From contig JAIUPJ010000001.1 in the NCBI GenBank assembly GCA_020160975.1, positions 120,001 through 152,000 on the forward strand: a stretch of 32,000 bases of DNA. The letters run 5' to 3'. A model generated the notes under the pieces. It made no database searches and was not told the origin of the DNA. It saw only the letters and a list, made by a program, of their open reading frames with translations. The translations under genes and the position numbers were made by a program. This document shows, one piece after another, positions 1,518-32,000 of the stretch (position 1 is the first letter of the stretch; each line of letters starts with the position of its first letter). The DNA is from Candidatus Saccharimonadota bacterium. Lineage in GTDB: Bacteria; Patescibacteriota; Saccharimonadia; Saccharimonadales; Saccharimonadaceae.

Positions 1518-1518
1518 T

Positions 1519-2871: not shown

Positions 2872-3001
2872 GTTCTAATGACAGTGTAATTTATTCTTAA
2901 ATCTAGAACCAAGTGTCTATTTTGCATTTGCGTATTTCTGCATTGGCCTCTCTCACAACCAATAGCGTCTTTCGCCCCCGCAATGGTATAATACAAAGCA
3001 A

Positions 3002-4459: not shown

Positions 4460-4530
4460 CGGCTCGTCGCCTCATTTTGCATCAAGATACGCTATACTGG
4501 AGAGAGTAGAACAACAAGGAGGAAATACCT

Positions 4531-4821: not shown

Positions 4822-4826
4822 TATCC

Positions 4827-5441: not shown

Positions 5442-5457
5442 AGGAGTAACCAAAAGT

Positions 5458-5491
5458 AAGAGCCCCGATCCTGCACAGGAGCGGGGCTCTT
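5458..5491. terminator. Bidirectional intrinsic terminator between convergent genes
   Basis: Perfect 10-bp stem AAGAGCCCCG (5458-5467) / CGGGGCTCTT (5482-5491) with a 14-nt loop, lying between the recR stop and the stop of the minus-strand ORF. Confidence 0.7.
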
Positions 5492-5514
5492 ACTGTGCGG
5501 GTTCGGGGCTTTGA

Positions 5515-5832
5515 TCAGGCGGCGATGATTGCCGCGCCGACACCATGCGTGCGGCTGGGTCGAAGCTGCAGGTGAAGCTCCTCGTGGCCGCTGGCATGGG
5601 CCATGCCTTGGATGATGTGAAGTATCTCCTCATCACTCCGCTGGGGACAGTTGAGAGCCAACTTCAGCTGCTCAACAACCGCCGGCGAGAACACGACGAT
5701 ACCACTCTGCTCCGACAATGCAATCGCCAATCTCGCCTGAAGGCAATAGTGGTTGATCGTCGCCTCGATGTAGTACGACTGGGCATTGCGTGCCCGTACT
5801 TCGAGGGCCTCGACTTTTCGAGAATCTGACAT
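5515..5832 (-). CDS. Hypothetical protein (105 aa)
   Basis: Has its own extended -10 (TGCTATAAT, complement of 5867-5875) and a GGAAGG Shine-Dalgarno 6 nt before the ATG. No family recognised. Confidence 0.55.
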   Translation of the reverse strand: MSDSRKVEALEVRARNAQSYYIEATINHYCLQARLAIALSEQSGIVVFSPAVVEQLKLALNCPQRSDEEILHIIQGMAHASGHEELHLQLRPSRTHGVGAAIIAA

Positions 5833-5924
5833 GGATAGCCTTCCATCTGGAGTAGATTGGAATTATATTATAGCACAGTTTATGCGTTTGTGTCAATAGC
5901 CTTACGCAAGGTATACTGGTAGAT

Positions 5925-6941
5925 ATGTTTTCAAACGCGATCGACATGATTGATAACGCGATAACCGTTGTCGTAGTCCAAGGTGAAAACCCAGATGGCG
6001 ATTCTTTGGGCAGCTCACTGGCGCTCGAAGAGTTGCTGAGCGAGCAGGGCAAGACTGTCACCATGTACTGCGCGATTGACATGCCAAAGTACCTCCGGTA
6101 TGTCACCGGCTGGGATAGAGTGGTCAATGATTTTCCGTTGTCAGCCGACTTAGCTATTATCGTCGACACAGCAGCAGAAACACTACTTGAAAAAGCCCTC
6201 TCCAGTCCAGGCGTCCGGCAGTTTCTGGAGTCCCATCCCGTTATCGTGCTTGACCACCACGGAGAGAACGACGACGAAACATCGCAGAATGACCTGTCAT
6301 TCCGCCACGAGTTTGTCATGAGCAGCACAGCACCCGCAACGGGTGAGCTCATCTACGAGCTGGCAAAGGAAGCGAAGTGGCCTGTGACTGCAGAAGCCGC
6401 TCGTAGCCTGTATATCTCAATCGCCTCAGATACACTTGGCCTCTCTACCGAGGCGACGACACCGGAGACATTTCAAACGGTCGCTGACTTGGTGAAATAT
6501 GGCGCAAAACCCTACGAGATCGAGTCGCTTCGCCGTGAATATATGCGCAAACCCGCCGATATTTTGGCCTACAAGGGAGAACTGATCGGTAGGATTGAAT
6601 ACTTACTCGATGGCAAGCTCGCTGTCGTACATATTCCCTGGGAGGATATTCAGGCGTATTCCGACCGCTACAACCCGAGCGTTTTGGTCCTTGACGAAAT
6701 GCGCCTGGTAGACGGTGTTGAAGTCGCGTGCGCCATAAAAACCTATCCTGATGGCAAGCTGACAGGCAAATTGCGTTGCAACACGCCGGTTGGCGCAACT
6801 ATTGCCGGGTACTTCGGTGGTGGCGGGCACAGCTACGCTGCTGGATTCAAGATATTTGAAGGCTACGACGCGGCCATTGCAGAACTTATTACTGCAACCG
6901 ATAAAGCACTGAAGGAATTTCATGCCGCTCAAACTGTATAA
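5925..6941 (+). CDS. nrnA: DHH/DHHA1 phosphoesterase (NrnA-like oligoribonuclease / pAp phosphatase)
   Basis: Motifs DGDSLGSSLAL, VLDHHGEN (DHH) and GGGGHSYAAGF (the DHHA1 GGGH motif). Confidence 0.85.
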   Translation: MFSNAIDMIDNAITVVVVQGENPDGDSLGSSLALEELLSEQGKTVTMYCAIDMPKYLRYVTGWDRVVNDFPLSADLAIIVDTAAETLLEKALSSPGVRQFLESHPVIVLDHHGENDDETSQNDLSFRHEFVMSSTAPATGELIYELAKEAKWPVTAEAARSLYISIASDTLGLSTEATTPETFQTVADLVKYGAKPYEIESLRREYMRKPADILAYKGELIGRIEYLLDGKLAVVHIPWEDIQAYSDRYNPSVLVLDEMRLVDGVEVACAIKTYPDGKLTGKLRCNTPVGATIAGYFGGGGHSYAAGFKIFEGYDAAIAELITATDKALKEFHAAQTV

Positions 6942-8517
6942 CACTGCGACGAAATCCGTCGAGGAGCTCACGCCACTCAACGATAAGCGAGTCACGCTCT
7001 ACACGTGTGGCCCTACCGTGTATGATCATCTGACTGTGGGTAACTGGTCAGCGTATATCTACTGGGACAGCTTGGTTCGCGCACTATTGAGTGCTGGCTA
7101 TCATGTCGAGCGCGTCATGAACATTACTGATGTTGGGCACCTAGTGAGTGATGCCGATGAGGGCGAGGATAAACTCGAAAAAGGCGCCCGGCGCGAAGGC
7201 AAAACTGCATGGGAAATTGCCGAATTTTATGCTGAGGATTTTGTGGCCGGAATGGAGAAGCTTGGCCTCATACCGCCGGAACATCTTGTCAAAGCAACAG
7301 ATTTTATTGATCAACAACTTGACCTTGTGCGCATACTCAAAGAAAAAGGTTTCACCTACCAGACGCACGATGGCATTTATTTTGATACCAGCAAGTTCCC
7401 AAGCTATGCTGACTTCGCTCATCTTGACCTCGCCGCTCAAAAAGCAGGTGCGCGAGTAGAAGCCAACGACGAAAAGCGCCAACCATGGGATTTTGCACTA
7501 TGGAAGTTTACTCCTATCGGTGAAAAACGTGACATGGAATGGGCCACACCGGATGACCTGCTTGACCTTCCTCCAAATTCGCCGCTTGTGTCGTCACCAG
7601 TTGCAGGCGATTCGATTAAAGCAGCGTCAGGCCAGGCACCCCCTCAAACCACCCCTCTAGAAACGCATGGCTCGCAAAACTCAGAGCTCAGAACTCAGAA
7701 CTCTTCCAGAGTTATGGGCTTTCCTGGGTGGCATCTAGAATGCTCGGCTATGGCTATGAGCATTCTCGGCCCGACGATCGACATTCATACCGGAGGGATC
7801 GATCACATTCCGGTGCATCATACCAACGAGATTGCCCAAAGCGAAGCCGCTAGCGGCAAAAAATTTGCCAATTTATGGCTTCACAATAACCATCTCAAAA
7901 TCGATGGCGGCAAGATTAGCAAAAGTCTTGGCAATGGCCATACTCTCCAAGACCTAGCAGATGAAGGATTTTTGCCGATGGATCTGCGAATGTTTGTACT
8001 GCAAAGCCAATTCATGACAGAAGGTAACTTTACGTTTGACAATCTTCAGGCAGCAAAAAATCGGCGTGATAACTGGCGAAACTACGCTGTACTTCGCCAC
8101 CAAACACACGATTCGCTCAGTGATGACGACACCAAGAACGATGATGAGAAGTACCCGTCACTGCAAGCATCTGCTGGCGCACTCCGTGAAGCGCTCCTAA
8201 ACAATCTCAATACACCAGAGATGATGCGTATCGTTGATGCTTCGTTTAGCCAGCTCGACCGTCAGCCACTTGGCACTATTCATCGCCACGGTCTTATCGA
8301 ACTTCTCACTGCAATCGATGAACTACTTGGCCTTCAACTCATAGCTAGTACACCTGATGTCGATGATGACGCCAAGCGAATTATCCTCGAACGCCAACGC
8401 GCCCGTGAAGCAAAAGACTGGAACAAATCTGATGCACTACGCGATCAACTTCTTGAGAAAGGAATCGAGGTAAAAGATAGTCCCTCTGGTGTGATCTGGA
8501 CGTACGCGCCCAATTAA
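6922..8517 (+). CDS. cysS: Cysteine--tRNA ligase
   Basis: MPLKLYNTATKSVEEL.., TCGPTVYD, GFPGWHLECSAM, HTGGIDHIPVHHTNEIAQSEA, KISKSLGN (KMSKS) and a C-terminal ERQRAREAKDWNKSDALRDQL helix. Overlaps the nrnA-like 3' end by 20 nt. Confidence 0.9.
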   Translation: MPLKLYNTATKSVEELTPLNDKRVTLYTCGPTVYDHLTVGNWSAYIYWDSLVRALLSAGYHVERVMNITDVGHLVSDADEGEDKLEKGARREGKTAWEIAEFYAEDFVAGMEKLGLIPPEHLVKATDFIDQQLDLVRILKEKGFTYQTHDGIYFDTSKFPSYADFAHLDLAAQKAGARVEANDEKRQPWDFALWKFTPIGEKRDMEWATPDDLLDLPPNSPLVSSPVAGDSIKAASGQAPPQTTPLETHGSQNSELRTQNSSRVMGFPGWHLECSAMAMSILGPTIDIHTGGIDHIPVHHTNEIAQSEAASGKKFANLWLHNNHLKIDGGKISKSLGNGHTLQDLADEGFLPMDLRMFVLQSQFMTEGNFTFDNLQAAKNRRDNWRNYAVLRHQTHDSLSDDDTKNDDEKYPSLQASAGALREALLNNLNTPEMMRIVDASFSQLDRQPLGTIHRHGLIELLTAIDELLGLQLIASTPDVDDDAKRIILERQRAREAKDWNKSDALRDQLLEKGIEVKDSPSGVIWTYAPN

Positions 8518-8526
8518 ACAACTGGG

Positions 8527-9663
8527 CTACGCGTCTTCACCAGTCAATTTCTTGACCAATTTTGTCAGTGGCTTGGCGTTTTCCTCGCGCTCTTTGTGGG
8601 CATTTTTGAGATACTCCTCAATCAAGATTTTGATACAGCCTGCAATCGGAATGGAAATGATACCACCAGCAATACCAAAGACATATATACCAATAGTAAC
8701 CGCTACCAAGATTGCCAAAGGACTGAGTGATATGGTTCGTGACTGCACGGCAGGTGAAATCACGTTGTTTTCAACCTGCTGATAAATCATGAAATAGACT
8801 GCGAATATAAATGCAGCCGGCAGACTGTTGAATGCCAATAGTACCGTCACAATCACCCCGGCGATTGTGGCACCAAACATCGGGATCAGTGACAGCACAA
8901 AGCAAGTGGCGATTGCTACCATCGCGAGGCTTGAAGGCACCGCAGGGAAGAACAAAGTGATCAAAAATACCGCCAGGCCCGCCATCAGACCGTCGATGCC
9001 AGAAATGGTGATTTGCCCCGTCACATAGTTTGAGACGACAGCGTGCATTCGGCGAATCAAGCGCAGGTGGCTGTCACGACGATCAGTGTTGCGATACAGT
9101 GTGGCGATTCGCGCTACCCACGCTGGTCCCTCGACAAGCATAAGGAATGTCAGCACCAGCATGAGCATACCGGACAAAAAGGCTGAGAGTGCCGAGCCAA
9201 CACCATTCAAGAAGTTCTTGCCAAACCCGGTTGCCCAGCTTCCGGCATCGGTCTGCAAGGATTTGATTGCTTGATCAATTTGCGGCTGCAGATGGTACTT
9301 ATCGATGAGATTACCGACACCTTTCCACTGCTCAGAAACCGTTCGCACTGCCTCTGGTGCGCTATCGATAAACTTTATGGTTTGCTGCACAATAGGTGGC
9401 ACGACGAGAAAGGCAATTGCCGCCAGTACTGCCACTACCACAACAAACGCCAGTGCCGTACTAAGTACACGACTCCTACCGGGTAGGTAGTTTGCCAGAC
9501 GACTGACTGGCCCATTGAGAGCGAGCGCAAAAAACAGCGCTGCCGCAAGAATAATGAGAGCCGTGCGCGCACTATACAACGCAAGAATAACGAACCCGAA
9601 CCCAATCACTACTAGCCAGAACCGAACAAATGTCTTTGTGTCAATTTCAATACGTACTTTCAT
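8527..9663 (-). CDS. AI-2E family (PerM/UPF0118-like) membrane transporter
   Basis: About 8 TM segments with the size and topology typical of the family. The internal ATG at 9663 (MKVRIEID..) is preferred over the track GTG at 9678, because an extended -10 TGTATACT sits 6 nt upstream of it. Confidence 0.7.
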   Translation of the reverse strand: MKVRIEIDTKTFVRFWLVVIGFGFVILALYSARTALIILAAALFFALALNGPVSRLANYLPGRSRVLSTALAFVVVVAVLAAIAFLVVPPIVQQTIKFIDSAPEAVRTVSEQWKGVGNLIDKYHLQPQIDQAIKSLQTDAGSWATGFGKNFLNGVGSALSAFLSGMLMLVLTFLMLVEGPAWVARIATLYRNTDRRDSHLRLIRRMHAVVSNYVTGQITISGIDGLMAGLAVFLITLFFPAVPSSLAMVAIATCFVLSLIPMFGATIAGVIVTVLLAFNSLPAAFIFAVYFMIYQQVENNVISPAVQSRTISLSPLAILVAVTIGIYVFGIAGGIISIPIAGCIKILIEEYLKNAHKEREENAKPLTKLVKKLTGEDA

Positions 9664-9957: not shown

Positions 9958-10380
9958 ATGAGTTATCTCGACAAAACACTTGTTAGTGTCCGTCTTGTTG
10001 ATGGAAACAGTTCCTCCTTGCTCGAAGCGGCAACACATATATTGGAGACTTGTGAACACAAAACTGTAGGAGAGGTGCTCTCGACACTTCACAACCTGCC
10101 TACTGTACGTTCACGACCGATCAACAGTGGTACGACCGCCTATTTCTCTTGGAATGAGTGGCATCACGGGCGGCACTTCAAGCTCTATGCAGCCGGCGAT
10201 GAAACCCTTCTGCAGCACTGTACCCTCACTGATACCGAGCGAGAGCAGCTTAGTCTCGCCATTCGTCGCGCCGGCACCTACGAACAGGAGATTTGCGTAG
10301 TAGCCTCTGCCATCACCGTTACATCAAGCGAAAAACTCGCGCACAACATGACCTGTATAGGTATCATCTTTTGCCACTAG
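9958..10380 (+). CDS. Hypothetical protein resembling an isolated P-type ATPase nucleotide-binding (N) domain segment
   Basis: HFKLYAAGDETLLQHCTLTDTEREQLSLAIRRAGTYEQEICVVA resembles the KGAPE..C....L....R..I......G.RVLA region of P-type ATPases. TGGTATACT extended -10 lies 9 nt before the ATG. Confidence 0.5.
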   Translation: MSYLDKTLVSVRLVDGNSSSLLEAATHILETCEHKTVGEVLSTLHNLPTVRSRPINSGTTAYFSWNEWHHGRHFKLYAAGDETLLQHCTLTDTEREQLSLAIRRAGTYEQEICVVASAITVTSSEKLAHNMTCIGIIFCH

Positions 10381-19469: not shown

Positions 19470-19671
19470 ACGGAAGAACCGTATGCTTATTGCCGCGGCG
19501 TTCGACGCCACAATCGTAGCTCGCCGTAAATCGGGTCAACCGGACGCCGCGCTCGACACGTTCGTCAAGATGGGGGAGCGTGATACCGAGCCGCTCATAA
19601 TCACGAGTAAGAAGTGAGTGCATTGCCTCGGCATCTTCTGGAGTGGGGTAGCGATAGGTTATTTCTTTCAT
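19408..19671 (-). CDS. Short ORF (87 aa) with a GNAT-like N-terminus; possible remnant
   Basis: MKEITYRYPTPEDAEAMHSLL resembles the start of GNAT acetyltransferases, but the rest does not. TGGTATACT extended -10 lies 10 nt upstream. The 3' 62 nt overlap ackA antisense. Confidence 0.35.
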   Translation of the reverse strand: MKEITYRYPTPEDAEAMHSLLTRDYERLGITLPHLDERVERGVRLTRFTASYDCGVERRGNKHTVLPFIRKLIAWCVERFRVLHGQE

Positions 19672-19697
19672 ACTTGCTTCAAGTATACCACGAGGTA

Positions 19698-19726
19698 TTG
19701 CATATTCATGATGTTTGTGCTATAAT
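19698..19726 (+). promoter_or_regulatory. Near-consensus promoter driving the structured leader upstream of the NRAMP gene
   Basis: TTGCAT (19698-19703), 17-nt spacer, extended -10 TGCTATAAT (19718-19726). Confidence 0.7.
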
Positions 19727-19732
19727 AGAATT

Positions 19733-20046
19733 TAGGCTTGCTGACATCACTAGTCGCTACAATAACTTTGGAGAATTGTGACCGAGAAGCTTTCCTTTGT
19801 GAAATACCCCCCCGGAACCGATGCGGCAAAGTCTGTGTTGGCATTCATAGAGCTCTGGAAGGAGTATGTTGAAATAGCCCCGCACTGCAGCCCGCTCGAT
19901 GTGGCTGCGATGCGAAAGCGCCTCCGCGTCGCCTGGCGGCGCCACTGGAGGGACCACGGACGGCTGATTGTCCGGTCGTCCTGCCATCGCCCCGCGGGGC
20001 CGCACTGAGATTCGTCTCGGAGCGGCCCCGGCCAGGGGCGATTTTT
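19733..20046 (+). promoter_or_regulatory. Roughly 315-nt G+C-rich structured leader ending in a long intrinsic terminator; candidate riboswitch or attenuator, class unassigned
   Basis: Runs from the promoter-predicted TSS to a roughly 21-bp composite hairpin (19987-20041: TCGCCCC..GGGGCCGC..GAGA-TTCG-TCTC..GCGGCCCC..GGGGCGA) followed by TTTTT (20042-20046). The NRAMP ATG lies 55 nt further on. Confidence 0.5.
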
Positions 20047-20100
20047 CATATTCTGCACTGTGATACAATACGTCATAGATTAGCTTAAACGGAATAGTCC

Positions 20101-21522: not shown

Positions 21523-22827
21523 ATGAAGAAAACACCACAATTTGAGACACTTGTTCTCGAAAAAATCGTCGGCGGCGGGCAAGCTCTCGGCACGCTAGAG
21601 AACGGCCGCAAGGCGTTTGTATGGGGTGGCTTGCCCGGCGAGGAGGTGACGATTCGTGTTACCAAGAAAAAATCTCATTTTGTCGAAGGTATCGTAACAG
21701 AAGTCTTGCAAGCGTCGCCGGAACGTACCGAACCGCTCGATCCTGAAAGCTATCTCAGCACCAGCCCGTGGCAGATCATGAGCTTTGAAGCCGAGCAACA
21801 CTACAAGGCCGCCCTGATCGAGGAAGCATTTGAACTTCATGATATTGTGCTGCCCGATCCAATCGAGGTATCTACTGATGGCCGAGTTAGCCATTATAGA
21901 AACAAAGTAGAATTTAGTTTTTTTGGATTTGAAGATACAGAAAGTAACTACGAATACCTCAAGCTAGCGTTTTTCCAGCGCGGTGGCAAAGGAAAGATTC
22001 CAGTAGCAAACTGCTCATTACTCCCAGCGCCAATGATGGATCTTGCTCTAGATATCTGCGCATACCTCGAAAGTGTCCAAGTCACTGCGCGACAGCTTAA
22101 AACTCTCTTAATTCGCTGCGACCAGCAAGGCAACTGCGTTTGGCAACTCTACATCAAAGAAGAGGTATGTGGCTTTATGAGTGAGCACGAGGCAGCAGGC
22201 TTCAAGGCGCAGGGAGGAGAAGTCATCTACAGCGATCCACGTAGCCCTGCCAGTCGCATCACCAAACGCTTGCTATCGGTCGGAAATGTCGTACTGACCG
22301 ACATTATCCTCGGCGTGCCGTTTCGCTACGCTACTGAGAGCTTTTTCCAAGTAAATATCCCCGTATATGAGCAAGCGCTCAGTGATATGAAACAGTGGAC
22401 CAAGTCAGAAGCGCCAATAGTAGATCTTTATTCGGGTGTGGGATCGATTGGACTGACCATTGGAGGCGATGCTTGCACCTTGATAGAGATCGATGATAAC
22501 GCTGTGCGCGAGATGAAGCGCAATATAAAGGAGCAGGCAAGTGGCGCCACCGCAGTGCATGCGGCTAGCGAAAAAGCCCTCGACTACATCACCAGCGAGC
22601 AGGTCGTTATCGTTGACCCGCCACGCGCTGGCATGCACCAGGCGGTAATCGACAAGCTTCTCGAGACAGCGCCGCCAAGTATTATCTACCTCAGCTGCAA
22701 TCCCGTCACCCAGGCCCGTGACGTCGCGCTTTTGTCTGAAAAATATGGCATCCGTGCACATAGAGGCTACAATTTTTTCCCACGCACACCCCATATTGAA
22801 CATCTTGTTATTCTCGATAAGAAATAA
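21523..22827 (+). CDS. RNA (uracil-C5)-methyltransferase, RumA/RlmD/TrmA family, with N-terminal TRAM domain
   Basis: TRAM-like GEEVTIRVTKKKSHFVEGIVTEV, FFQVN, DLYSGVGSIGL (SAM), VDPPRAGM and YLSCNP (catalytic Cys). No Fe-S cluster cysteines are seen in the linker. Confidence 0.85.
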   Translation: MKKTPQFETLVLEKIVGGGQALGTLENGRKAFVWGGLPGEEVTIRVTKKKSHFVEGIVTEVLQASPERTEPLDPESYLSTSPWQIMSFEAEQHYKAALIEEAFELHDIVLPDPIEVSTDGRVSHYRNKVEFSFFGFEDTESNYEYLKLAFFQRGGKGKIPVANCSLLPAPMMDLALDICAYLESVQVTARQLKTLLIRCDQQGNCVWQLYIKEEVCGFMSEHEAAGFKAQGGEVIYSDPRSPASRITKRLLSVGNVVLTDIILGVPFRYATESFFQVNIPVYEQALSDMKQWTKSEAPIVDLYSGVGSIGLTIGGDACTLIEIDDNAVREMKRNIKEQASGATAVHAASEKALDYITSEQVVIVDPPRAGMHQAVIDKLLETAPPSIIYLSCNPVTQARDVALLSEKYGIRAHRGYNFFPRTPHIEHLVILDKK

Positions 22828-22885
22828 CCTCGCCTAGCGACCTCGTGCATTCCATAGCATAAGCACCGTGTGCTACACTAAAAAC

Positions 22886-23320
22886 ATGCAAAGAAGCCGC
22901 GGCTTTACCCTCATCGAAATTGCTGTTGTCGTAACGGTTATTGCGCTATTGGCATCAATTGTCATCGTCAGTTTCAATCAAGTCCAAAAGCGTTCTCGCG
23001 ATGATATGCGCACGGTACAAGTCACCGCCCTCAAGACCGCGCTTGACCGATATTACAACGACAATGGTGAGTATCCTGTTTGTCCGGGCGGGCCCAACAG
23101 CGAATGCTCGGCGTCGCAGTATCTTACTCCCATTCTCGTGCCCACCTACACCTCATCTGTTCCTGACCAACCCAACAATCAGCCGTACACCTACGTCCGG
23201 GGCACTCCTAGCGACTCATACGGTATTTTCGTGAACTACGAGGTGCTTTTGGCATGTAAGACCGGCCGAAACATGTCTGCGACATGGTATGGCGGGTGGG
23301 GCAATGTCTGTAGTCTCTAG
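22886..23320 (+). CDS. Type IV pilin-like protein (prepilin N-terminal domain)
   Basis: MQRSRG|FTLIEIAVVVTVIALLASIVIVSF. ATG 22886 is preferred over the track GTG at 22868. TGCTACACT lies 6 nt upstream. Confidence 0.85.
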   Translation: MQRSRGFTLIEIAVVVTVIALLASIVIVSFNQVQKRSRDDMRTVQVTALKTALDRYYNDNGEYPVCPGGPNSECSASQYLTPILVPTYTSSVPDQPNNQPYTYVRGTPSDSYGIFVNYEVLLACKTGRNMSATWYGGWGNVCSL

Positions 23321-23808
23321 CTCGTCTTAATGCGTCGGTAAGTGAATTTCGCTGCAGGACGCCAGCCGCCGCGGGCATCGTGGTCGGCCTGGTAGAGCGT
23401 CCCGTCTCGCACTTCTTCGACCAGGATGAGCGCGGGTGTATACGGAGCAAGTGTGCGATAAAACACCAAGTCGCTGTCGTGGATGTCCTTGCGACCAGGA
23501 TAGACTTCTTTAAACTTTGCTTCGCCTACTTCGTCAAAATAACGCGGGCGGCCCTTTGGCGGTATATACATCTCGGCTTTTAACCCGATTCGTGCCACGA
23601 TTTTCTTGACATCACTCAGAAGCAGCTTGGCAGGCCCGTAGATGTAGCAGTAGAGCTGCTTCTTGCGGCTAAGGAAGACCGTGGCTTTGGCCGACTGACC
23701 CACAGCAATATCGCGCACGATTGCCTTGTCAACATCAATCGGCACGCCGAATTTTTCCTTTATCTCGCGCTCGATGGTGAAATCATCGAACATATCGCCA
23801 GTATTCAT
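23317..23808 (-). CDS. Hypothetical protein (163 aa)
   Basis: Clean ORF with TGCTATACT extended -10 6 nt upstream of the ATG. Its stop overlaps the pilin stop (CTAG). No family recognised. Confidence 0.6.
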   Translation of the reverse strand: MNTGDMFDDFTIEREIKEKFGVPIDVDKAIVRDIAVGQSAKATVFLSRKKQLYCYIYGPAKLLLSDVKKIVARIGLKAEMYIPPKGRPRYFDEVGEAKFKEVYPGRKDIHDSDLVFYRTLAPYTPALILVEEVRDGTLYQADHDARGGWRPAAKFTYRRIKTS

Positions 23809-23850
23809 AGGGGTAGTATAGCAGTTTTTTGAGATTATTGATAAAAATCA

Positions 23851-23879
23851 TTGACATTTTTGTAATAATGATATATAAT
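23851..23879 (+). promoter_or_regulatory. Consensus sigma70 promoter for candidate ncRNA B
   Basis: TTGACA (23851-23856), exactly 17-nt spacer, TATAAT (23874-23879), in an AT-rich divergent region. Confidence 0.8.
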
Positions 23880-23885
23880 GTTAAA

Positions 23886-24386
23886 TACCCTCGCAAGAGG
23901 GCGGTACACGCAGTTACATGCCGATTCCCCCACGACTCCACGGAGTTTGTGGGCACGGGGTACGACAGCTTACAGGCTGTTGTCGTACCTATTGGGCTTC
24001 GGCTCATAAACGTGGATAGCCTGCGGCTCCGCTCTAGCAAGCGAAAGAGACAAGAAGTGTGAGCGGCACTTGCAGTACTTGGCTCAAGTAGGCATGGAGT
24101 ACCCGCTCCATTGCGCGGCCCTTGGCCGTCACCCCTACGGGGGTTCAAGCAGGAATGGGCACCTGCGTTAGGGCGCGATACGGCTCACCGGGAACGTCTC
24201 GGTGCAACTATCGCCCCTCTAGGCCAGTGAGAAGGAGGGCACTACTTTTCACAAAGAAATGGCCAGTCGTGCGGTTCGATCCACATAGCAGTGCCCCCTG
24301 GGGGCCGGGAACAACACATCGCCGCAAGGCGACGTGCCCGGCCTCCAGGCCTTTTTCATTTCACACCCTTTCCAGGGTGTTTTTTG
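23886..24386 (+). ncRNA. Candidate large structured ncRNA B (about 500 nt), class unknown
   Basis: Starts at the promoter-predicted TSS and ends at tandem terminators (GGCC-TCCA-GGCC+TTTTT at 24340-24356; ACACCCT-TTCC-AGGGTGT+TTTTTT at 24363-24386). A sampled 60-nt line is 63% G+C. Contains GNRA and UUCG tetraloop hairpins. Only implausible ORFs are present. Confidence 0.6.
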
Positions 24387-24414
24387 TTGGCTAAAAAGTC
24401 GATCGGAGAATATT

Positions 24415-24521
24415 CACCCATAAGTTTCGTATGGTCGTGTGACATGAGAGAATCTAGGCTTGCGGCCTGGAATTTCTCATGCCACAGCGTCTATTGCCAA
24501 TAGATACCAAACTTATGGGTG
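24415..24521. repeat. 107-nt element bounded by a perfect 13-bp inverted repeat
   Basis: CACCCATAAGTTT (24415-24427) and AAACTTATGGGTG (24509-24521) are exact reverse complements. Nested imperfect hairpins lie inside (CATGAGAGAAT..AATTTCTCATG). The right arm abuts the helicase promoter. Confidence 0.5.
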
Positions 24522-24546
24522 AAGATTCGGGGTATAATAAACTGCA

Positions 24547-27500
24547 ATGACCAACTTTTCTTCACGCTACAAAAACCTGAATGCCGCTCAAAAACAAGCA
24601 GTCGACACTATTGATGGGCCGCTACTGGTGATTGCTGGGCCCGGGACAGGCAAGACAGAATTGCTTAGCATGCGTACGGCCAACATATTGCAAAAGACCG
24701 ACACACTACCGGAAAATATCTTGTGCTTGACCTTTACGGATAGCGGCGCGACCGCCATGCGAGAGCGTCTCAGTCAAATCATCGGCCCGGCTGCCTACAA
24801 AGTCGCCATCCACACCTTCCACAGCTTTGGCACAGAAGTCATCAACCAAAACAACCAGTACTTTTACCAAGGCGCCAACTTCAAGCCAGCCGACGAGTTG
24901 GCGCAGTACGAAATCTTGACTAGTATCTTCGACGAACTAGACTATACCAACCCATTGGCCAGCAAGCTGGGCGACGAATACACTCACCGACGTGATGCTG
25001 CACGGATTATCAGCGAGCTGAAGCAAGCTGGGCTGACGAGTGACGAGCTACTGGCGATTATTCAGGCCAACGAAACTGTGCTCGATGCCGTCGAGCCAGA
25101 CCTGATGCGTATTTTTGCTGAAAAAATCAGCACTACCATGCTGACACATCTGGTGCCGCTGGCCCAAAAAGTCGCCGCGCTGGTGCAACCAAATCTGCCG
25201 CCCGGCATCACGCCGCTGGCAAATGTCCTGGCACTCAGCATGGCGCACGCCTTTGACGCAGCGGTCGAAACCGGCAAGACCAACGCACTTACCGCTTGGC
25301 GCAACCAATGGATGGAAAAAAATGAATCAGGTGAATTTGTATTCAAGGATCGCAAGCGCTACATAAAGCTGCGTGCCATGAGCCACGTGTACTACTCGTA
25401 CCTCACTCGCATGGAGCAAGCCGGACTGTACGATTACGACGACATGATCTTGAACGTTATCCATGCCATGGAGCTACACAAAGACCTGTCCTATAACTTG
25501 CAGGAAAAGTATCACTATATTCTGGTGGATGAATTTCAAGACACCAACTTGGCACAGCTACGTATTCTATTTGACCTGACCAGCAGCGTGACGGGTGATG
25601 CGCCAAATATCATGGCTGTCGGCGATGACGACCAGGCGATTTACAGCTTTCAAGGGGCAGATGTCAATAATATTCATCGCTTCGCCGCACAATACCCAGG
25701 GTTTCATAGTATAGTGCTGACCGACAATTATCGTTCAGCGAGCACAATTCTTGAATCTGCACGTACTGTCATAACGCAGGGAGGTGACCGACTAGAGCAA
25801 ACAATGGGGCTTAACAAAAAGCTCACTGCTCATGCTAGTCCAGACAATCCTTTTGTCTGCTTGCACGAACTGAGCCATACCAGCAATGAAAGAAGCTGGA
25901 TTGCCAAAAAAATCAAAGAACGTATCGCTGCTGGCACCGCTCCAGACTCAATTGCGATACTGGCAAGACGCCACCAAGAACTTATTGCGCTCGCCCCTTA
26001 TCTTGTCGATGCGGGCATCCCGATCCGCTATGAGCGTCGTGAAAATATTCTTGATTCTCCAGTGGTTCAGACACTTGAACTTATTGCACGGGTAGTTGTC
26101 GCGATCGCCGAAAGTAACCATAGCGAGACTAACTCTCAATTACCCGAGCTCCTCGCTCACCCAATGTATGGGTTTACGCCCGAATCAATCTGGCGCCTTA
26201 GTATTACAAGTGCGCGCAATCACCTAAGTTGGCTTGAGACAATGATAGCAAGTACAGAATTTAAGCCATTTTCTGAATGGCTCATCACTCAGGCGGCGTC
26301 GATTGCTCGTGAACCGCTCGAACTAGTAATCGACCGATTGATTGGGCTTCCAAGCGATACCGTAGGTAATGAAGTTGTTGGCTTTCGTTCACCGTTTTAT
26401 CACTACTATTTTGGTGAAGAATCAAAGAACACTCATGCTCAGCACTACATTGAAGCGCTCGAATCTCTTCGTACAATGCGCGACCATTTACGTGAATACA
26501 AGCCAGATCAACTGCTTTTGTTGACAGATCTGCTTGATTTCATTGACGCACATCGACAGTTAGGCACGCGAATTACCAGTGTTCAGCGCATAAACACAGC
26601 CGATGCCGCGGTACAACTCATGACCGCTCACAAGTCAAAAGGACTTGAGTTTGACCATATCTACGTGATCGGTGCAATTGATAGCGCCTGGGGAGAACGA
26701 GTTCGAAGTCGTAGCCGCCTCATTGGCTATCCTGCGAACCTCCCACTTGCCCCAAGCGGAGGCAGCTACGATGAGCGCCTGCGATTGTTCTATGTTGCAA
26801 TGACTCGGGCAAAACAGAGTCTGACAGTGACCTACAGTGCAGCCGATGACCTGGAGAGGACGCAACTGCTTGCAAGCTTTTTGACCGATACCGGACTTCA
26901 CCCAATCAAGGAGGTGCACACAAAAACAACACGCGAGTTGGTTCGAGATCAAGAAATTGCATGGCATGACCGACTAACCGCACATCCGACTTCTTCTATG
27001 AACGATTTAGTACGGCCAATTCTCGATACTTACAAATTATCAATCACTCATCTAAATAACTTTATCGATATTTCGCGTGGTGGTCCAACTCACTTTCTTC
27101 TCAGTAATCTTTTGCGTTTTCCTCAGGCAAAAAGCGCCAATGCGGCCTATGGTACGGTAATTCATCGTACACTTCAAAAAGCCCACAATCATCTAAGCGC
27201 AACGGGTGAACGTCGCCCGGTTGAAGACGTGCTGGGAGATTTTGTCGCCGAACTCCACGACCAACACCTCTCTCGCGACGACGAGCTTCTCTATGCCAAG
27301 CGCGGCGCCGATAGTCTCAACGTATTTCTACGTAATTGCTACGACGGCTTTCTCCCTGGACAAAAAACAGAGCTGAATTTTGCAAATCAAGGTGTCGTGA
27401 TCAACGAGGCAAGACTGACTGGGGCACTTGACGTCGTGACGCTTGAGGGGCAAGAGATAGTGGTAACAGACTACAAAACAGGCAAACCGTCCCGCGACTG

Positions 27501-27831
27501 GCAGGGAAAGACCGACTGGGAGAAGATAAAGCTCCACAAATATCGTCAACAATTGATGTTTTACCAGCTTTTGACTGAGCATTCGAGAGATTATAGCAAA
27601 TACGATTTCCAGCGCGGAGTCTTGCAGTTTGTCGAACCCGATGCCGCAGGGCGCATCCACGCACTCGATGCCAGCTTCACCCGCGAAGAACTAGTTGATT
27701 TTGCAAAACTGCTTGGTGCCGTCTGGCAATCCATCATGAAACTTGATTTTCCCGATATCAGTGACTATGACCCAACCTTCAAGGGAATGTTGCAATTTGA
27801 AGCAGATCTTATTGACAAATACGGTTATTAA
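24547..27831 (+). CDS. UvrD/PcrA-type superfamily 1 helicase fused to a C-terminal PD-(D/E)xK (RecB/AddB/Cas4-like) nuclease domain
   Basis: Q-motif LNAAQKQAV, Walker A AGPGTGKT, motif II VDEFQDTN, TAHKSKGLEF and YVAMTRAK. C-terminal GALDVVTL..IVVTDYKTGK..YRQQLMFYQLL nuclease core. TATAAT lies 8 nt before the ATG. Confidence 0.9.
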   Translation: MTNFSSRYKNLNAAQKQAVDTIDGPLLVIAGPGTGKTELLSMRTANILQKTDTLPENILCLTFTDSGATAMRERLSQIIGPAAYKVAIHTFHSFGTEVINQNNQYFYQGANFKPADELAQYEILTSIFDELDYTNPLASKLGDEYTHRRDAARIISELKQAGLTSDELLAIIQANETVLDAVEPDLMRIFAEKISTTMLTHLVPLAQKVAALVQPNLPPGITPLANVLALSMAHAFDAAVETGKTNALTAWRNQWMEKNESGEFVFKDRKRYIKLRAMSHVYYSYLTRMEQAGLYDYDDMILNVIHAMELHKDLSYNLQEKYHYILVDEFQDTNLAQLRILFDLTSSVTGDAPNIMAVGDDDQAIYSFQGADVNNIHRFAAQYPGFHSIVLTDNYRSASTILESARTVITQGGDRLEQTMGLNKKLTAHASPDNPFVCLHELSHTSNERSWIAKKIKERIAAGTAPDSIAILARRHQELIALAPYLVDAGIPIRYERRENILDSPVVQTLELIARVVVAIAESNHSETNSQLPELLAHPMYGFTPESIWRLSITSARNHLSWLETMIASTEFKPFSEWLITQAASIAREPLELVIDRLIGLPSDTVGNEVVGFRSPFYHYYFGEESKNTHAQHYIEALESLRTMRDHLREYKPDQLLLLTDLLDFIDAHRQLGTRITSVQRINTADAAVQLMTAHKSKGLEFDHIYVIGAIDSAWGERVRSRSRLIGYPANLPLAPSGGSYDERLRLFYVAMTRAKQSLTVTYSAADDLERTQLLASFLTDTGLHPIKEVHTKTTRELVRDQEIAWHDRLTAHPTSSMNDLVRPILDTYKLSITHLNNFIDISRGGPTHFLLSNLLRFPQAKSANAAYGTVIHRTLQKAHNHLSATGERRPVEDVLGDFVAELHDQHLSRDDELLYAKRGADSLNVFLRNCYDGFLPGQKTELNFANQGVVINEARLTGALDVVTLEGQEIVVTDYKTGKPSRDWQGKTDWEKIKLHKYRQQLMFYQLLTEHSRDYSKYDFQRGVLQFVEPDAAGRIHALDASFTREELVDFAKLLGAVWQSIMKLDFPDISDYDPTFKGMLQFEADLIDKYGY

Positions 27832-27840
27832 GACTATGAT
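27812..27840 (+). promoter_or_regulatory. Near-consensus promoter for candidate ncRNA C, embedded in the helicase 3' end
   Basis: TTGACA (27812-27817), 17-nt spacer, TATGAT (27835-27840). Confidence 0.7.
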
Positions 27841-27847
27841 ATCATTT

Positions 27848-28432
27848 AGTCGCGAGGGAATTACCCTAGCAACGAACACCTCGAAAGGGTGAGCACATTG
27901 GCACATGGAGGTAACGAAGGCGAAGCCCGACAGAGGGCTCACGATGCCTACAAGGCCGCCTTGGAGAGCGACCCGAGAGGCGCGTCCGAGGACACGAAGC
28001 AGCTGAAGGCGGCCCTCGATGCAGCCGCCGCTCGCGAGAACGAAGCGAAGGGAACACCCGGCCAGCGGAGGTACTGAGGCGGCCACGATTGCCGTGAGGC
28101 AACCGTACGAAAGCTCGGGATGCGGCAGTAGCCGGCACGTGGACGCACGGAGGGTACAACCCCTACATCCCAACCAATCTTCTCCTGGGCCAACACACCC
28201 CCATGTGGTCCGGGAGAAGGGGGCAAGTGCATCGAGGGCAGGGCCCCTGCACTTCTGGAGAGCTGCCGTGTCCCCCATTGGCAGGCTCCCAGCACCCCGC
28301 TGCCAGCGCTCCAGTCGCTCGGCAGCGGGGTGGCCCAACAACACACCCTAGGCCAGTACTTGGCGCTCCCACCAGCGCTTCGAGGAACACCTCACCCTTA
28401 TAGCCGTCTCTTCATTGAGGCGGCTTATTCAA
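27848..28432 (+). ncRNA. Candidate large structured ncRNA C (about 585 nt), class unknown
   Basis: Sampled 60-nt lines are 67-72% G+C, against 32% in a sampled helicase line. Perfect long stems: GGCCGCCTT/AAGGCGGCC within 27952-28013, CCCCGCTGCC/GGCAGCGGGG at 28295-28330 and AAGTGCA/TGCACTT. GNRA loops TTGCC-GTGA-GGCAA and CACCTC-GAAA-GGGTG. Terminator-like AGCCGTCTC-TTCATT-GAGGCGGCT at 28402-28425. Confidence 0.55.
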
Positions 28433-28450
28433 TTGTCATTGTTCTCATGC

Positions 28451-28478
28451 TTGTGACTGCAGCAGAATCTGCTATGAT
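28451..28478 (+). promoter_or_regulatory. Promoter for candidate ncRNA D
   Basis: TTGTGA (28451-28456), 16-nt spacer, extended -10 TGCTATGAT (28470-28478). Confidence 0.6.
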
Positions 28479-28484
28479 ATAGCT

Positions 28485-28852
28485 AAGTTGGCAGAGCTGT
28501 AGGGCACCCTCTACGCCTAGACCCGCTGTATCGGTAGATACAAAAAAAGCCCCGTTCTCGAGTACCTTTCATGAGAGGTGAGCGGTGAAGGTAGAGGAGG
28601 TGTTGCCCGCGCGCCCAAGATCCTACCTGAAGAGAGCAGCACCTGGCAGACTCCCCAAAGAACTGCTGGTTGAAACAGGCGCGCTCGACGCCTCTGCACT
28701 CTCTTTTCTGGCCTGACGAGCCACGAAATCGTCAAAGGCTGTATGGCACAGTGGACAGCGTATCAGCGTGCCAAGCTGAAGGTGTGACTTTGATCATCGC
28801 CACAGCCACCCGCCCTCGTCTCGTGTGTACACATGCGTGACGAGGGCTTTTC
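28485..28852 (+). ncRNA. Candidate structured ncRNA D (about 370 nt), class unknown
   Basis: Lies between the promoter and a strong terminator: GCCCTCGTC (28812-28820) / GACGAGGGC (28839-28847) followed by TTTTCC. G+C-rich with internal hairpins such as GACGA-GCCACGAAA-TCGTC. No credible ORF. The dus-like gene has its own -10 further downstream. Confidence 0.5.
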
Positions 28853-28943
28853 CTATTCAGAACCCTGGCACTAAAGGCTAAAGCTATCGTACCATTAACA
28901 AAACTTAGAACTTAGAACCATTGTGCGATATAATAGGCAGGTT

Positions 28944-30134
28944 ATGTCAAACTTCTGGCTCGACCTCCCAAACCCTTTCTTCGTGCTCGCCCCTATGGAA
29001 GCCGTCACTGATGTTGTATTTCGCCATGTCGTCGCGCAGGCCGGGCGACCAGATGTCTATTTCACCGAATTTACCAATGCTACCGGGTGGTTCCGCGCCG
29101 GCAACAAAGCTATCGGGGGGAGACTCGTCAAGACTGATGACGAGAGCCTCATCGTTGCGCAACTGTGGGGCAGCGACCCCGAGGCGATGGCCGCGCTCAG
29201 CCAACACTGCGCCGAGCTTGGCTATGACGGTATCGACATCAACATGGGTTGCCCCGATCAATCCGCAATCAAGGGCGGTGGGGGAGCCGATATGATCCGC
29301 AATCCTGATCGCGCCGCTGCCATCATTGCGGCTGCCAAAACCAGCGGTCTACCCGTCAGTGTCAAAACTCGGCTTGGCTACACCTACGTTCACGAGTGGC
29401 GTGAGTGGCTGACATTTCTGCTCCGCCAAGACATCGCCGCACTGACTATCCACCTCCGTACCAAAAAAGAAATGAGCAAAGTACCTGCGCATTTTGAATT
29501 GATCGACGACATCAAAGCTCTTCGCGACGAAATCTCGCCGGGGACACCGCTTATCGTCAACGGCGATATTGTCGACCGCGCGCATGGCGAAGATTTAGCG
29601 GCACAGCACGGTATCGATGGCGTGATGATCGGCCGGGGCGTTTTTGCTAATCCATTTTGCTTTACGCAGAATGCAAAAAGAGAGATGCAGCATGCGACAA
29701 AGGAAAAAACTCAACGACATCCTTTTATACAGTCGAAACCTCGACCTGTCGCTCACTCTATTGAAGCATCTGCTCAAACCCGCGAGATGAGTGAGGCGTT
29801 TTCATTACGAAGCGAGTACCGCCTGAGCGGAGCAAGTCACGCAACGCCCAACGAAAGTGACAAACAAGACTCTCGGCATACAGAATCCACTGAAAAAGAT
29901 GTTAGTGACAGTGCTGAGTCAGTTAGCCATAAAAGGCAACTTATCGATCTGCTTCATTTCCACCTCGATCAATTTGATTATTATCAGCCGCAGATGGGTC
30001 GGCCATTTGAAACGCTCAAGCGCTTTTTCAAAATCTATATCAGAGACTTCGATGGCGCCAGCGACCTCCGCGACCAACTGATGCACTGCACAAGCACCAA
30101 CGAAGTTCGCCGCATCCTCAGTAACCATCGTTAG
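28944..30134 (+). CDS. tRNA-dihydrouridine synthase (Dus family) with a long polar insertion
   Basis: FFVLAPMEAVTDVVFRHV, AQLWGSDPE, GIDINMGCP (catalytic Cys), IHLRT and VNGDI..GVMIGRG. ATG 28944 is preferred over the track GTG at 28923. TATAAT lies 9 nt upstream. Confidence 0.85.
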   Translation: MSNFWLDLPNPFFVLAPMEAVTDVVFRHVVAQAGRPDVYFTEFTNATGWFRAGNKAIGGRLVKTDDESLIVAQLWGSDPEAMAALSQHCAELGYDGIDINMGCPDQSAIKGGGGADMIRNPDRAAAIIAAAKTSGLPVSVKTRLGYTYVHEWREWLTFLLRQDIAALTIHLRTKKEMSKVPAHFELIDDIKALRDEISPGTPLIVNGDIVDRAHGEDLAAQHGIDGVMIGRGVFANPFCFTQNAKREMQHATKEKTQRHPFIQSKPRPVAHSIEASAQTREMSEAFSLRSEYRLSGASHATPNESDKQDSRHTESTEKDVSDSAESVSHKRQLIDLLHFHLDQFDYYQPQMGRPFETLKRFFKIYIRDFDGASDLRDQLMHCTSTNEVRRILSNHR

Positions 30135-30354
30135 CTCTGACATACACCCTGCCATCCATCCACTACTCATCCATTTGTCCTACCCTCCGCCGATTGATCG
30201 ATCCAGATCAATGTTATGTACAATTTTCTATGACGGCCATCACAAAAAGTGATACAAATTGTGGCATGATGTAGTTCCTATAAGAGAGCAAAGATGGTCT
30301 TGATAATGTAAATAATTTCGACAGGCTCGATAGGTACGCTGTGAGGTACGCGCG

Positions 30355-30780
30355 TTAGCGACGGCGGTGTCGTCGTTGCAAATCAGCTACCTTGAGGCGG
30401 ACGGCGTGACGATCCACCAGTTGATGGGCCTTCTCGAGCTCTACTTGATCACTGGCGGCATCGCGCAGTTGTAGGGCACGGTCGAGTGCCGCCTGGGTCT
30501 CAGCCTCGACAATGTCTTCGCCGTGCTCCGCTTCATTGACTAGCACGCGCACGCGTGAGCTGTTGATCTCGACGATACCTCCACTAATTGCAAACAACTC
30601 TAGCTGGCTATCGCTATCTTGCTTGTTCCGCCGCACCATGACGACTCCCGGTTTCGCCACGGTTACGAGATCTTCGTGACCAGGAAATATCGAAATTTCA
30701 CCGTCTTTGGTTGGCAACATAACTTCGTAGACATTTTCATTGATTTTTGTCCCGGACAGGGTGATAAGCTCAAGATCCAT
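30355..30780 (-). CDS. atpC: F-type ATP synthase subunit epsilon
   Basis: MDLELITLSGTKINENVYEVMLPTKDGEISIFPGHEDLVTVAKPG.. is a typical epsilon beta-sandwich followed by a C-terminal helical hairpin. Confidence 0.9.
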   Translation of the reverse strand: MDLELITLSGTKINENVYEVMLPTKDGEISIFPGHEDLVTVAKPGVVMVRRNKQDSDSQLELFAISGGIVEINSSRVRVLVNEAEHGEDIVEAETQAALDRALQLRDAASDQVELEKAHQLVDRHAVRLKVADLQRRHRRR

Positions 30781-30796
30781 ATAGTTCTATGATAGC

Positions 30797-30821
30797 AGAA
30801 AACCCCTCGGCGAGCGAGGGG
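30797..30821 (-). terminator. Intrinsic terminator after the inserted membrane gene
   Basis: On the minus strand: CCCCTCG-CTCGC-CGAGGGG followed by TTTTC (plus-strand stems at 30803-30809 and 30815-30821). Confidence 0.65.
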
Positions 30822-30907
30822 TACGAAAAGGAGTGAGACAGGGGCGGCGGGGGGCTGTGCACAGATGACGGATGTCACCGCGCACAGCCCCCATGCATCT
30901 GCTGGTG

Positions 30908-31213
30908 CTAGAAGCCGTGGAAGCCATACACCAGCATGGCGGCGAAGATGCCCCACAGCAGCACACTGCCGATCAACCCGAGCCAGAAATAACGGCCCAA
31001 GTGAATGGCCCAGCTACCGCACTGGACAGCACCGAACAACAGATACGCCCCCAGCCCCCACCAGAAGCCACCGATGGCCGCCGCGAAGATGGTCATCAGG
31101 ATACCCACCAGGGTGGCGATGATCGGGATGACAAGGTCAATCTTCTCGTCCTCATCTTCCACGTACAGGTGCGTACGCTCGGTGACAGTGAACGGGTCGG
31201 GACGATGCTCCAT
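30908..31213 (-). CDS. G+C-rich small membrane protein (101 aa, about 3 TM) between atpD and atpC
   Basis: AAGGAG SD 6 nt before the ATG. Acidic N-terminus followed by three hydrophobic segments. Own TGGTATAAT promoter (complement of 31265-31273). Confidence 0.65.
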   Translation of the reverse strand: MEHRPDPFTVTERTHLYVEDEDEKIDLVIPIIATLVGILMTIFAAAIGGFWWGLGAYLLFGAVQCGSWAIHLGRYFWLGLIGSVLLWGIFAAMLVYGFHGF

Positions 31214-31281
31214 CTCAAACTCCTTACGATAGGTTCGACCTGAAGTAATCAGGTATCAATCATCATTATACCATACTTAAC

Positions 31282-31316
31282 AAAAAAATACAAGTGCGCC
31301 CTGATCGCACTTGTAT
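31282..31316 (-). terminator. Strong intrinsic terminator immediately after atpD
   Basis: On the minus strand: ATACAAGTGCG-ATCAGGG-CGCACTTGTAT followed by TTTTTTT (plus-strand A run at 31282-31288). Confidence 0.85.
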
Positions 31317-31338
31317 TTCGTCACCGCAAAGGGAGAGG

Positions 31339-32000
<662 letters not shown>

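Follow-up and report, generated by a model that had tools for sequence, protein, structure and literature searches.

The 32,000-nt stretch analysed here (the window) is a segment of a Saccharibacteria (TM7) chromosome, Saccharimonas-like, in which three G+C-rich islands, B, C and D, surround a gene for a UvrD-type helicase fused to a PD-(D/E)xK nuclease. The explanation that we favour, and hold to be probable rather than certain, is that these islands are strain-variable, independently transcribed RNA cassettes in two recombination-prone slots flanking a core helicase gene, with tRNA or tRNA-like modules as processing points. B is a real, dispensable and strongly folded non-coding RNA, of a family not previously described in the literature that we searched. 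C is the mRNA of one among several interchangeable small proteins, set between a conserved 5' untranslated region (UTR) and a conserved 3' part, and D the precursor of a tRNA-Gly(GCC), headed by a long leader. The first-pass annotation of this DNA had put the three together as structured RNAs of unknown class; they are not of one class, since C is mostly a small-protein mRNA with a tRNA-like element and D a tRNA precursor. A shared class was also sought in the sequences themselves and rejected, because B, C and D have only chance-level words of 9-11 nt in common.

The window was compared with related loci, designated by L-numbers. L024 comes from a near-identical strain (ca. 98% DNA identity, helicase 99% identical), L010 is from the same species as the window, judged by its flanks, and L014 is a Logan assembly with a helicase 72% identical to that of the window. 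All 4227 Rfam families were searched by cmscan at E<=10 over positions 23600-29000, and also at gathering thresholds (GA); these searches covered the window, sub-regions of it and 14 related loci. Folding z-scores were calibrated with 79 tiles of 400 nt across the whole window (background mean -0.9, standard deviation 1.2). Proposed helices were set against slid controls, in which the pairing partners were shifted and the fraction of cells still pairing was counted.

Much of the anatomy seen in the first pass held. The three sigma-70-like promoter sites lie where it had placed them (12/12, 11/12 and 9/12 matches for B, C and D, the last with an additional TG), the units have their own terminators (two after B, a hairpin with U-tract after C and after D), and the islands are richer in G+C than the window (0.56-0.61 in B, 0.65-0.675 in C and 0.55-0.575 in D, against ca. 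0.51). Strong structure had been ascribed to all three. It is found in B, which with z -7.7 is the most structured stretch of the 32 kb, but not in D (z -2.2, not above the window background), and for C (z -5.3) some coding stretches reach -3.3 to -5.2. In the tiling the minimum also fell on B (-4.5), the C tile had -3.2 and several coding tiles reached -3.3 to -3.75, so that only B is exceptional by folding energy. Moreover, an island at 5445-5860 (minus strand) folds with z -5.2 though it looks coding, and therefore folding z alone does not identify RNA genes here.

Over positions 23600-29000 Rfam returned only a tRNA and two chance-level matches, and tRNAs were the sole finds in the window and the 14 related loci. 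Models of RNase P, tmRNA, signal recognition particle (SRP) RNA, 6S RNA, introns and large ornate RNAs gave no match even at E<=10, which agrees with the earlier failure to see signatures of RNase P, tmRNA, SRP RNA or group II intron domain V. The expectation of RNAs of unknown class was thus borne out for B, which has no Rfam family, but not for D, which ends in a tRNA that had been overlooked.

An accessory RNA upstream of the helicase gene

The features of B are as follows.

23851..23879, + strand: promoter of B, TTGACA-17-TATAAT, 12/12 by sequence match
23886..24385, + strand: RNA B, ca. 470-500 nt, non-coding, strongly structured, accessory (folding, comparison)
24155..24362, + strand: conserved core of the B family (model R1), from a three-lineage alignment (window, L014, L023)
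24294..24356, + strand: terminal module of B (terminator 1), sequence-invariant in the window, L014 and L023
24363..24385, + strand: second intrinsic terminator after B, conserved in L014 and L023
23868..24434, no strand: 567-bp segment (B minus its -35 box) missing in L024, by blastn

The coding potential of B is rejected because comparison with L014 gives stops in all six frames, no 3-periodicity among 78 substitutions and frame-breaking indels. The 5' third, only 64-69% identical to L014, contains six compensatory double changes and no broken pair. A third and shorter homologue, in L023, shares the 3' 200 nt, and in the core aligned from the three lineages 13 of 65 pairs have changed on both sides, with 94% of the cells paired as compared to 39-43% in the slid controls. 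The last 60 nt make up the terminal module, which consists of a 13-bp G+C stem, an AACAACA internal loop, an inner hairpin capped by GCAA and a U-tract. The R1 covariance model also matches elements of 440-580 nt in L019 and L003 (E ~1e-8), via the terminal module only, one pair of which covaries (G-C, C-G, U-A) in these two loci. A full-length alignment of B with these two elements was tried and discarded, as the terminal module alone aligns. A TTGACA box in the same context precedes B in L014 and L023, as it does the sister elements in L019 and L003, and all five B-type elements share one slot, between a gene for a 163-aa protein and the helicase, behind a TTGACA-type promoter. Model R1 found no paralogue in C, in D or elsewhere in the window.

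B is accessory, as it is missing from the near-identical strain L024 and from 13 of the 18 lineages with an orthologous helicase. L014 and L023 have it, L019 and L003 have the sister type, and L024, L010, L013, L016, L017, L001, L004, L022 and L025 lack it. By blastn, positions 1-561 of L024 correspond to window 23307-23867 at 98.6% identity, and positions 565-8139 to window 24435-32000 at 97.8%. L024 retains the -35 box of B and its junctions show neither terminal repeats nor a target duplication, so the difference resembles a simple deletion.

Small-protein mRNA, tRNA mimic and tRNA precursor downstream

Downstream of the helicase lie units C and D, with these features.

27812..27840, + strand: promoter of C, TTGACA-17-TATGAT, 11/12, overlapping the last helicase codons
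27847..28434, + strand: unit C, mRNA with tRNA-like element, hairpins and terminator
27847..27891, + strand: 5' UTR of C, two conserved hairpins, the second holding the Shine-Dalgarno-like GGGUG/GAGGA
27898..28077, + strand: small open reading frame (ORF), 59 aa, TTG start, MAHGGNEG...KGTPGQRRY-stop, conserved at the protein level
28116..28176, + strand: tRNA-Pro-like element TLE1, a four-way cloverleaf ending in ACCA, with a 4-nt 'anticodon' loop and a degenerate T-loop
28177..28401, + strand: hairpin array and 3' motif, G+C-rich; motif AGUACUUGGC-hairpin-UUCGAGGAAC at 28355-28388
28402..28434, + strand: terminator of C, AGCCGUCUC...GAGGCGGCU + UAUUCAAUU, conserved in 7 lineages
28451..28478, + strand: promoter of D, TTGTGA-16-TG-TATGAT, 9/12, partly conserved in L014
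28485..28853, + strand: unit D, leader, tRNA-Gly(GCC) and terminator
28485..28736, + strand: D leader, ca. 250 nt, non-coding by comparison with L014
28737..28808, + strand: tRNA-Gly(GCC) with atypical T-arm, Rfam tRNA 41.2 bits (GA 29)
28812..28853, + strand: terminator of D, hairpin and U-tract, conserved in L014

The islands had been thought non-coding throughout, which is true of B and of the D leader but not of C, where a conserved 59-aa protein is encoded. Its ORF is conserved codon by codon in L004, and the protein has five database homologues of 57-80 aa, one of them also right after the helicase (L025). What surrounds the ORF is more constant than the ORF itself. Thirteen loci keep the sequence TTGACAAATA...TATAAT at the 3' end of the helicase gene, and the 5' UTR has 96% identity to L014 despite the different ORF behind it; its stems change in step across loci (CACCU/GGGUG, CACAC/GUGUG, CACUC/GAGUG), and the TTG-GCN start that follows is conserved. 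Between the same UTRs, L014, L013, L022, L023 and L001 carry different ORFs, among them a Zn-ribbon-like one of ca. 50 aa in L014 (ca. 9358-9510) and Cys-rich peptides in L013 (9357-9536), L022 (ca. 4492-4680) and L023 (3879-4022). Several of these swappable peptides have the pattern CxCPGT...GGYG...CC..CxCTG (Cys-rich) or are Zn-ribbon-like. The 3' tail (28177-28401) is non-coding, as 1- and 2-nt indels separate it from L014 at 93% identity. Its AGUACUUGGC-hairpin-UUCGAGGAAC motif is kept in L001, L002/L022, L010, L013 and L016, and the long hairpin at 28292-28333 is swapped in L001 for another perfect hairpin. A long-range pairing between the 5' UTR and the 3' end of C (GGGUGAG/CUCACCC in the window) was considered and dropped, as it is not consistently kept in relatives. 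The U-tract of the C terminator is weak, from which we infer that read-through from C into D is possible.

The tRNA-like element between the ORF and this tail has a cloverleaf that is the minimum free energy structure and accounts for 48% of the ensemble. Among its orthologues in 11 lineages, 8 of 12 acceptor and T pairs changed on both sides, a value reached in none of 500 shuffles, and 93% of the cells are paired versus 41-58% in slid controls. The Rfam tRNA model has no match to the window copy at E<=10, and the orthologues of L001, L016, L017 and L019 pass its threshold with 46-52 bits. C1-G72 and A73 are kept among the orthologues and, in L019, also a D-arm and a CUUCG/CGAAG anticodon stem, all of them features that match E. 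coli tRNA-Pro. The 'anticodon' loop has 4 nt in the window and L014 and 6 nt in L001 and L016, and is replaced by an extended arm of 23-43 nt in L002, L010, L017, L019 and L021; in four lineages this arm carries the conserved GGACGAUGGAUAYGAUCCUAAUCAUG. Since none of the orthologues has a 7-nt anticodon loop while the stems are conserved, TLE1 is a conserved tRNA mimic and not a decoder. A hairpin lies directly 5' of it, at 28088-28106 in the window and as UAUGAGC...GCUCAUA in L001, L002, L010, L016 and L022.

Arrays of atypical tRNA-like genes occur 3' of the helicase in several relatives (L019 9541-10471, L017 9559-9678, L003 9911-9988, L006 9579-9655, L005 9578-9673), some with inserts of 23-43 nt where the anticodon loop would be, others with loops of 6 or 8 nt, and some as tRNA-Gly(GCC) with variable arms of 21-25 nt. 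Two calls of 'permuted tmRNA' made in relatives by ARAGORN, which was run at default and relaxed settings, including one in L021 at a relaxed threshold, were discarded as artefacts joining separate tRNA-like genes.

The tRNA of D has a 7-nt anticodon loop, GUGCCAA, with U33 and the anticodon GCC. It lacks a canonical T-arm, the T-loop being UUUGAUC with a C53xA61 mismatch, and the arm is mismatched in L014 too. With default settings ARAGORN missed this tRNA and called no tmRNA; when its threshold was relaxed, it reported the orthologue in L014 as tRNA-Gly(gcc). Coding is rejected for the leader, where every frame has stops and two 1-nt indels separate it from L014 at an identity of 87-96%. Ten one-sided changes in it preserve pairing, and no pair is broken. 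Besides the window, only L024 and L014/L015 have the leader. Unit D is absent from L001, L013, L016 and even L010, of the same species, and in other lineages the site is taken up by tRNA or tRNA-like genes of other kinds.

The anatomy of the locus, together with established tRNA maturation, leads us to propose that the tRNA or tRNA-like modules would be built-in sites for RNase P and for 3' processing (RNase P/Z). A cut 5' of TLE1 would leave the mRNA of the small protein with a 3' end protected by a hairpin and set free the hairpin-rich RNA downstream, and a cut 5' of tRNA-Gly would turn the D leader into an RNA of its own. As for B, its consensus promoter, two terminators and invariant 3' module suggest an abundant, nuclease-resistant accessory RNA that would act in trans and not on the helicase, the 3' module probably serving in protein binding or in protection of the 3' end.

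A core helicase gene in a variable locus

24547..27831, + strand: UvrD/PcrA-type helicase with PD-(D/E)xK nuclease, 1094 aa (Pfam)
24529..24538, + strand: helicase -10 region GGGGTATAAT, conserved in all close relatives
24443..24481, + strand: hairpin upstream of the helicase promoter, kept in L013, L016, L017, L014 and L019

The helicase-nuclease fusion described in the first pass was confirmed by Pfam (UvrD N- and C-terminal helicase and PD-(D/E)xK domains; PF00580, PF13361, PF12705); its separate -10 box holds as well. The NCBIfam models of PcrA, UvrD and AddA match the protein, all below their equivalog cut-offs, and the RecB cut-off is not reached either; by domain criteria it can be classed as AddA/RecB-type, as a family-level relative only. 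Homologues with 60-99% identity are labelled Candidatus Saccharimonas or Saccharibacteria, and orthologues with fixed synteny are found throughout Saccharibacteria. Every close relative fetched has the same gene order, that is, phosphoketolase, acetate kinase, Nramp, an RlmD/TrmA-like methyltransferase, pilin, the 163-aa gene (minus), helicase, Dus and atpC-atpD (minus). This fixed synteny makes the helicase a core gene, in our reading an ordinary repair gene. A reading as a Gabija defence system was rejected, because the GajB hidden Markov models of PADLOC that match the helicase core are generic for UvrD helicases, no GajA is present, and the neighbours (pilin, 163-aa protein, Dus) belong to the core synteny. 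No AddB partner lies next to the helicase. The hairpin upstream of its promoter is an imperfect palindrome, CATGAGAGAATCTAGGC...GCCTGGAATTTCTCATG, ca. 50 nt 5' of the -10 box; stem bases have changed in relatives, and it may be an operator or an upstream terminator. The 163-aa protein is encoded at 23317-23808 on the minus strand, divergent from B, by a gene that adjoins the helicase in all close relatives; the protein has no Pfam, NCBIfam or PADLOC match.

Around this gene the locus is variable. Between the window and L010 identity is 96% on one side and 94% on the other, and falls to 73-80% across 22818-28902 (L010 4914-9993), a block that runs from a type IV pilin-like gene through the 163-aa gene, the helicase and C to D. 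High-identity flanks around such a divergent block indicate that it was replaced by recombination. Just 5' of the dus promoter there is a short tandem repeat, AACTTAG / AGAACTY (window 28902-28918, L014 ca. 10320-10355, L013 9283-9874 at the 3' end), with a copy number that differs between lineages.

There are several points that weigh against our explanation. The B homologues amount to three close and two partial ones, all from one slot, and the recurrent adjacency of B-type elements to the helicase and to the 163-aa gene is left unexplained by it. Conservation and covariation in relatives, proposed in the first pass as a check, were found in the B core and in TLE1, but the D leader has no compensatory double changes. 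The window copy of TLE1, with its degenerate T-loop and a C1xA72 mismatch, may be decaying. The islands are 88-96% identical to L014 as compared to ca. 72% for the helicase, and part of this identity may reflect a recent recombination tract rather than constraint, because the spacers by the islands (ca. 86%) and the dus 5' end (ca. 84%) are also raised, so that recent exchange would contribute alongside any constraint. Finally, the RNase P/Z cleavages and the transcript ends of B, C and D are predictions from sequence.

A different account is that the islands are functionless, being decaying remnants of tRNA arrays and recombination scars conserved by recent exchange. The arrays that relatives have here, of tRNA genes and odd tRNA-like ones, the lost T-loop consensus of TLE1, the patchy presence of the islands, the raised identity of the neighbouring spacers and the background-level folding of D all fit it. 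We nevertheless consider it unlikely, as compensatory changes maintain the helices of B and, over 11 lineages, the acceptor/T stack of TLE1, diverged copies retain consensus promoters and terminators, and the fold of B is the most stable in the 32 kb. An alternative close to one put forward in the first pass, that B, C and D are guides, scaffolds or regulators forming one module with the helicase-nuclease, could draw on the five lineages in which B-type elements occupy only the slot just upstream of this gene, on the C promoter embedded in the helicase 3' end in all relatives, and on the joint replacement of the pilin-to-D block between genomes of the same species. It appears very improbable to us. 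The helicase of L024 is 99% identical and has no B, and the co-occurrence of RNA and orthologous helicase that had been suggested as a check fails in 13 of 18 lineages. D is missing in L010, L001, L013 and L016, the variable part of C is a protein ORF, and the GajB-type matches are generic and without GajA. In addition, neither TRF nor a direct-repeat search revealed repeats in B, C or D, be they tandem, interspaced or dispersed, which disposes of guide arrays of CRISPR or TIGR type, and complementarity to antisense targets inside the window, the locus included, was not above chance.

The first pass had also entertained a cluster of novel housekeeping RNAs, which is not supported, given that B and D vary between strains and are therefore dispensable. 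A related possibility is that the islands are highly divergent RNase P, tmRNA, SRP or 6S RNAs that Rfam does not recognise in this phylum. Strong promoters, the identity to L014 above that of the flanking genes, a T-loop-like motif GGUUCGAUC within an acceptor-like stem of B and the permuted tmRNA proposed by relaxed ARAGORN in L021 point that way. We find it scarcely credible, given the empty searches with Rfam at E<=10 and ARAGORN at default settings, the absence of B and D from same-species strains (incompatible with essential single-copy RNAs unless copies exist elsewhere), the stitching of the L021 call from two separate tRNA-like genes, and a B sequence in which neither 5'/3' acceptor pairing nor a tag frame was seen. 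Very improbable, too, is an insertion next to the helicase of phage or plasmid cargo or of a small, non-autonomous mobile element, as an explanation for B and possibly for D. Sharp boundaries of presence and absence between near-identical strains, and a G+C content above the surroundings, would be expected of such an element. The junctions, though, have no terminal inverted repeats, direct repeats or target duplication, the -35 box left in L024 fits a deletion rather than an empty site, and no second copy exists in the window or outside the slot in any fetched locus. Searches of external collections gave nothing either: three exact motifs from B, C and D and a degenerate pattern of the B 3' module in IMG/VR, one B motif and the same pattern in JGI metagenomes, and blastn against INPHARED phages. 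Among the loci compared here, the degenerate pattern recovers all those of B type, and only those.

Elsewhere in the window there are other G+C-rich islands. At 5445-5896 (minus strand) a perfect TTGACA-18-TG-TATAAT promoter (5896-5867) precedes a G+C-rich ORF of ca. 105 aa (ca. 5831-5514) between recR and a DHH gene, likely a small protein gene. Island E (30781-31293), between atpD and atpC, turned out to hold a gene on the minus strand (30908-31213) for a 101-aa small membrane protein with an acidic N-terminus followed by hydrophobic helices; L010, L013, L014 and L019 have it too, in widely differing versions. Terminator-like hairpins flank it (31319-31285 and 30822-30802), an unusual arrangement within an operon for ATP synthase. 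The intergenic region between ackA and the Nramp gene (19470-20100) peaks at a G+C of 0.645 (19801-20000), and relatives have small called genes in this gap (L010 1580-2104).

Comparison with known systems and biological meaning

B is similar to ROOL, GOLLD, OLE, raiA and HEARO in its 350-500 nt, its G+C-rich, multi-helix structure supported by covariation, its strong promoter, its strain variability and its location near tRNA genes. In contrast to them, it has no covariance-model match at E<=10 and no prophage context, and so far it is restricted to one intergenic slot in a few Saccharimonas-like lineages. The arrangement of C is reminiscent of MALAT1-mascRNA and MEN-beta of vertebrates and of mitochondrial tRNA punctuation, where a cloverleaf also stands 3' of an mRNA-like segment. 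TLE1 has in common with the mascRNA type the conserved acceptor and T stems, the lack of a decoding anticodon loop, the hairpin before it and a predicted role of RNase P. It differs in being bacterial and derived from tRNA-Pro, in the 250 nt of hairpins and the intrinsic terminator that follow, in a cleavage that is only predicted, and in an anticodon arm of variable size, from a loop of 4 nt up to an extension of 43 nt that has a conserved motif of its own. Mimicry of the acceptor and T-arm with replacement of the anticodon arm is also found in the tRNA-like domain of tmRNA and in the Y-RNA-like YrlA RNAs. Unlike tmRNA, TLE1 has no tag frame and no Rfam or ARAGORN match; unlike YrlA, it closes its acceptor stem with 5' and 3' strands that adjoin, like an ordinary tRNA, and the Pfam scan of ORFs from the window brought up no Ro/Rsr gene.

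The 3'ETS-leuZ sponge of E. coli is a small RNA derived from a tRNA operon. The leader of D resembles it as a conserved non-coding segment of a tRNA transcript that tRNA maturation would release, and departs from it as a 250-nt 5' leader with its own promoter, in two lineages only and with no target complementarity in the window. The helicase, finally, shares with AddA, RecB, PcrA and GajB a UvrD-type superfamily 1 core, together with the C-terminal PD-(D/E)xK nuclease, but it falls below the NCBIfam equivalog cut-offs, has neither GajA nor AddB adjacent, and is a core, syntenic gene and not part of a defence island.

It is conceivable, though we would put it forward with some diffidence, that the locus holds two undescribed RNA families: accessory B RNAs of 350-600 nt whose 3' module is invariant, and a non-decoding mimic derived from tRNA-Pro in the 3' part of the mRNA of swappable small proteins, often Cys-rich, the mimic belonging to a wider array of tRNA-like genes with 'anticodon loops' of 4, 6, 8 or 23-43 nt. 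B RNAs, which strains would gain and lose, may resemble ROOL or GOLLD in being abundant, structured and functional outside translation. The tRNA mimic would by analogy represent in bacteria what RNase P-dependent formation of mRNA 3' ends is elsewhere, or else serve some purpose other than decoding. The literature that we searched contains no description of structured RNAs in this phylum, nor of B or TLE1, and for TM7x a transcriptome preprint of 2022 states that there are currently no validated small RNAs (bioRxiv 10.1101/2022.03.25.485537).

The negative outcome for the partnership also matters, in that the adjacency of RNA and helicase-nuclease here reflects a recombination hot spot and not an RNA-guided enzyme. 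If B and TLE1 are expressed and processed as proposed, structured accessory RNAs would be on record for the first time in these ultra-small episymbionts, together with a bacterial case of tRNA-shaped punctuation shaping the 3' end of an mRNA.

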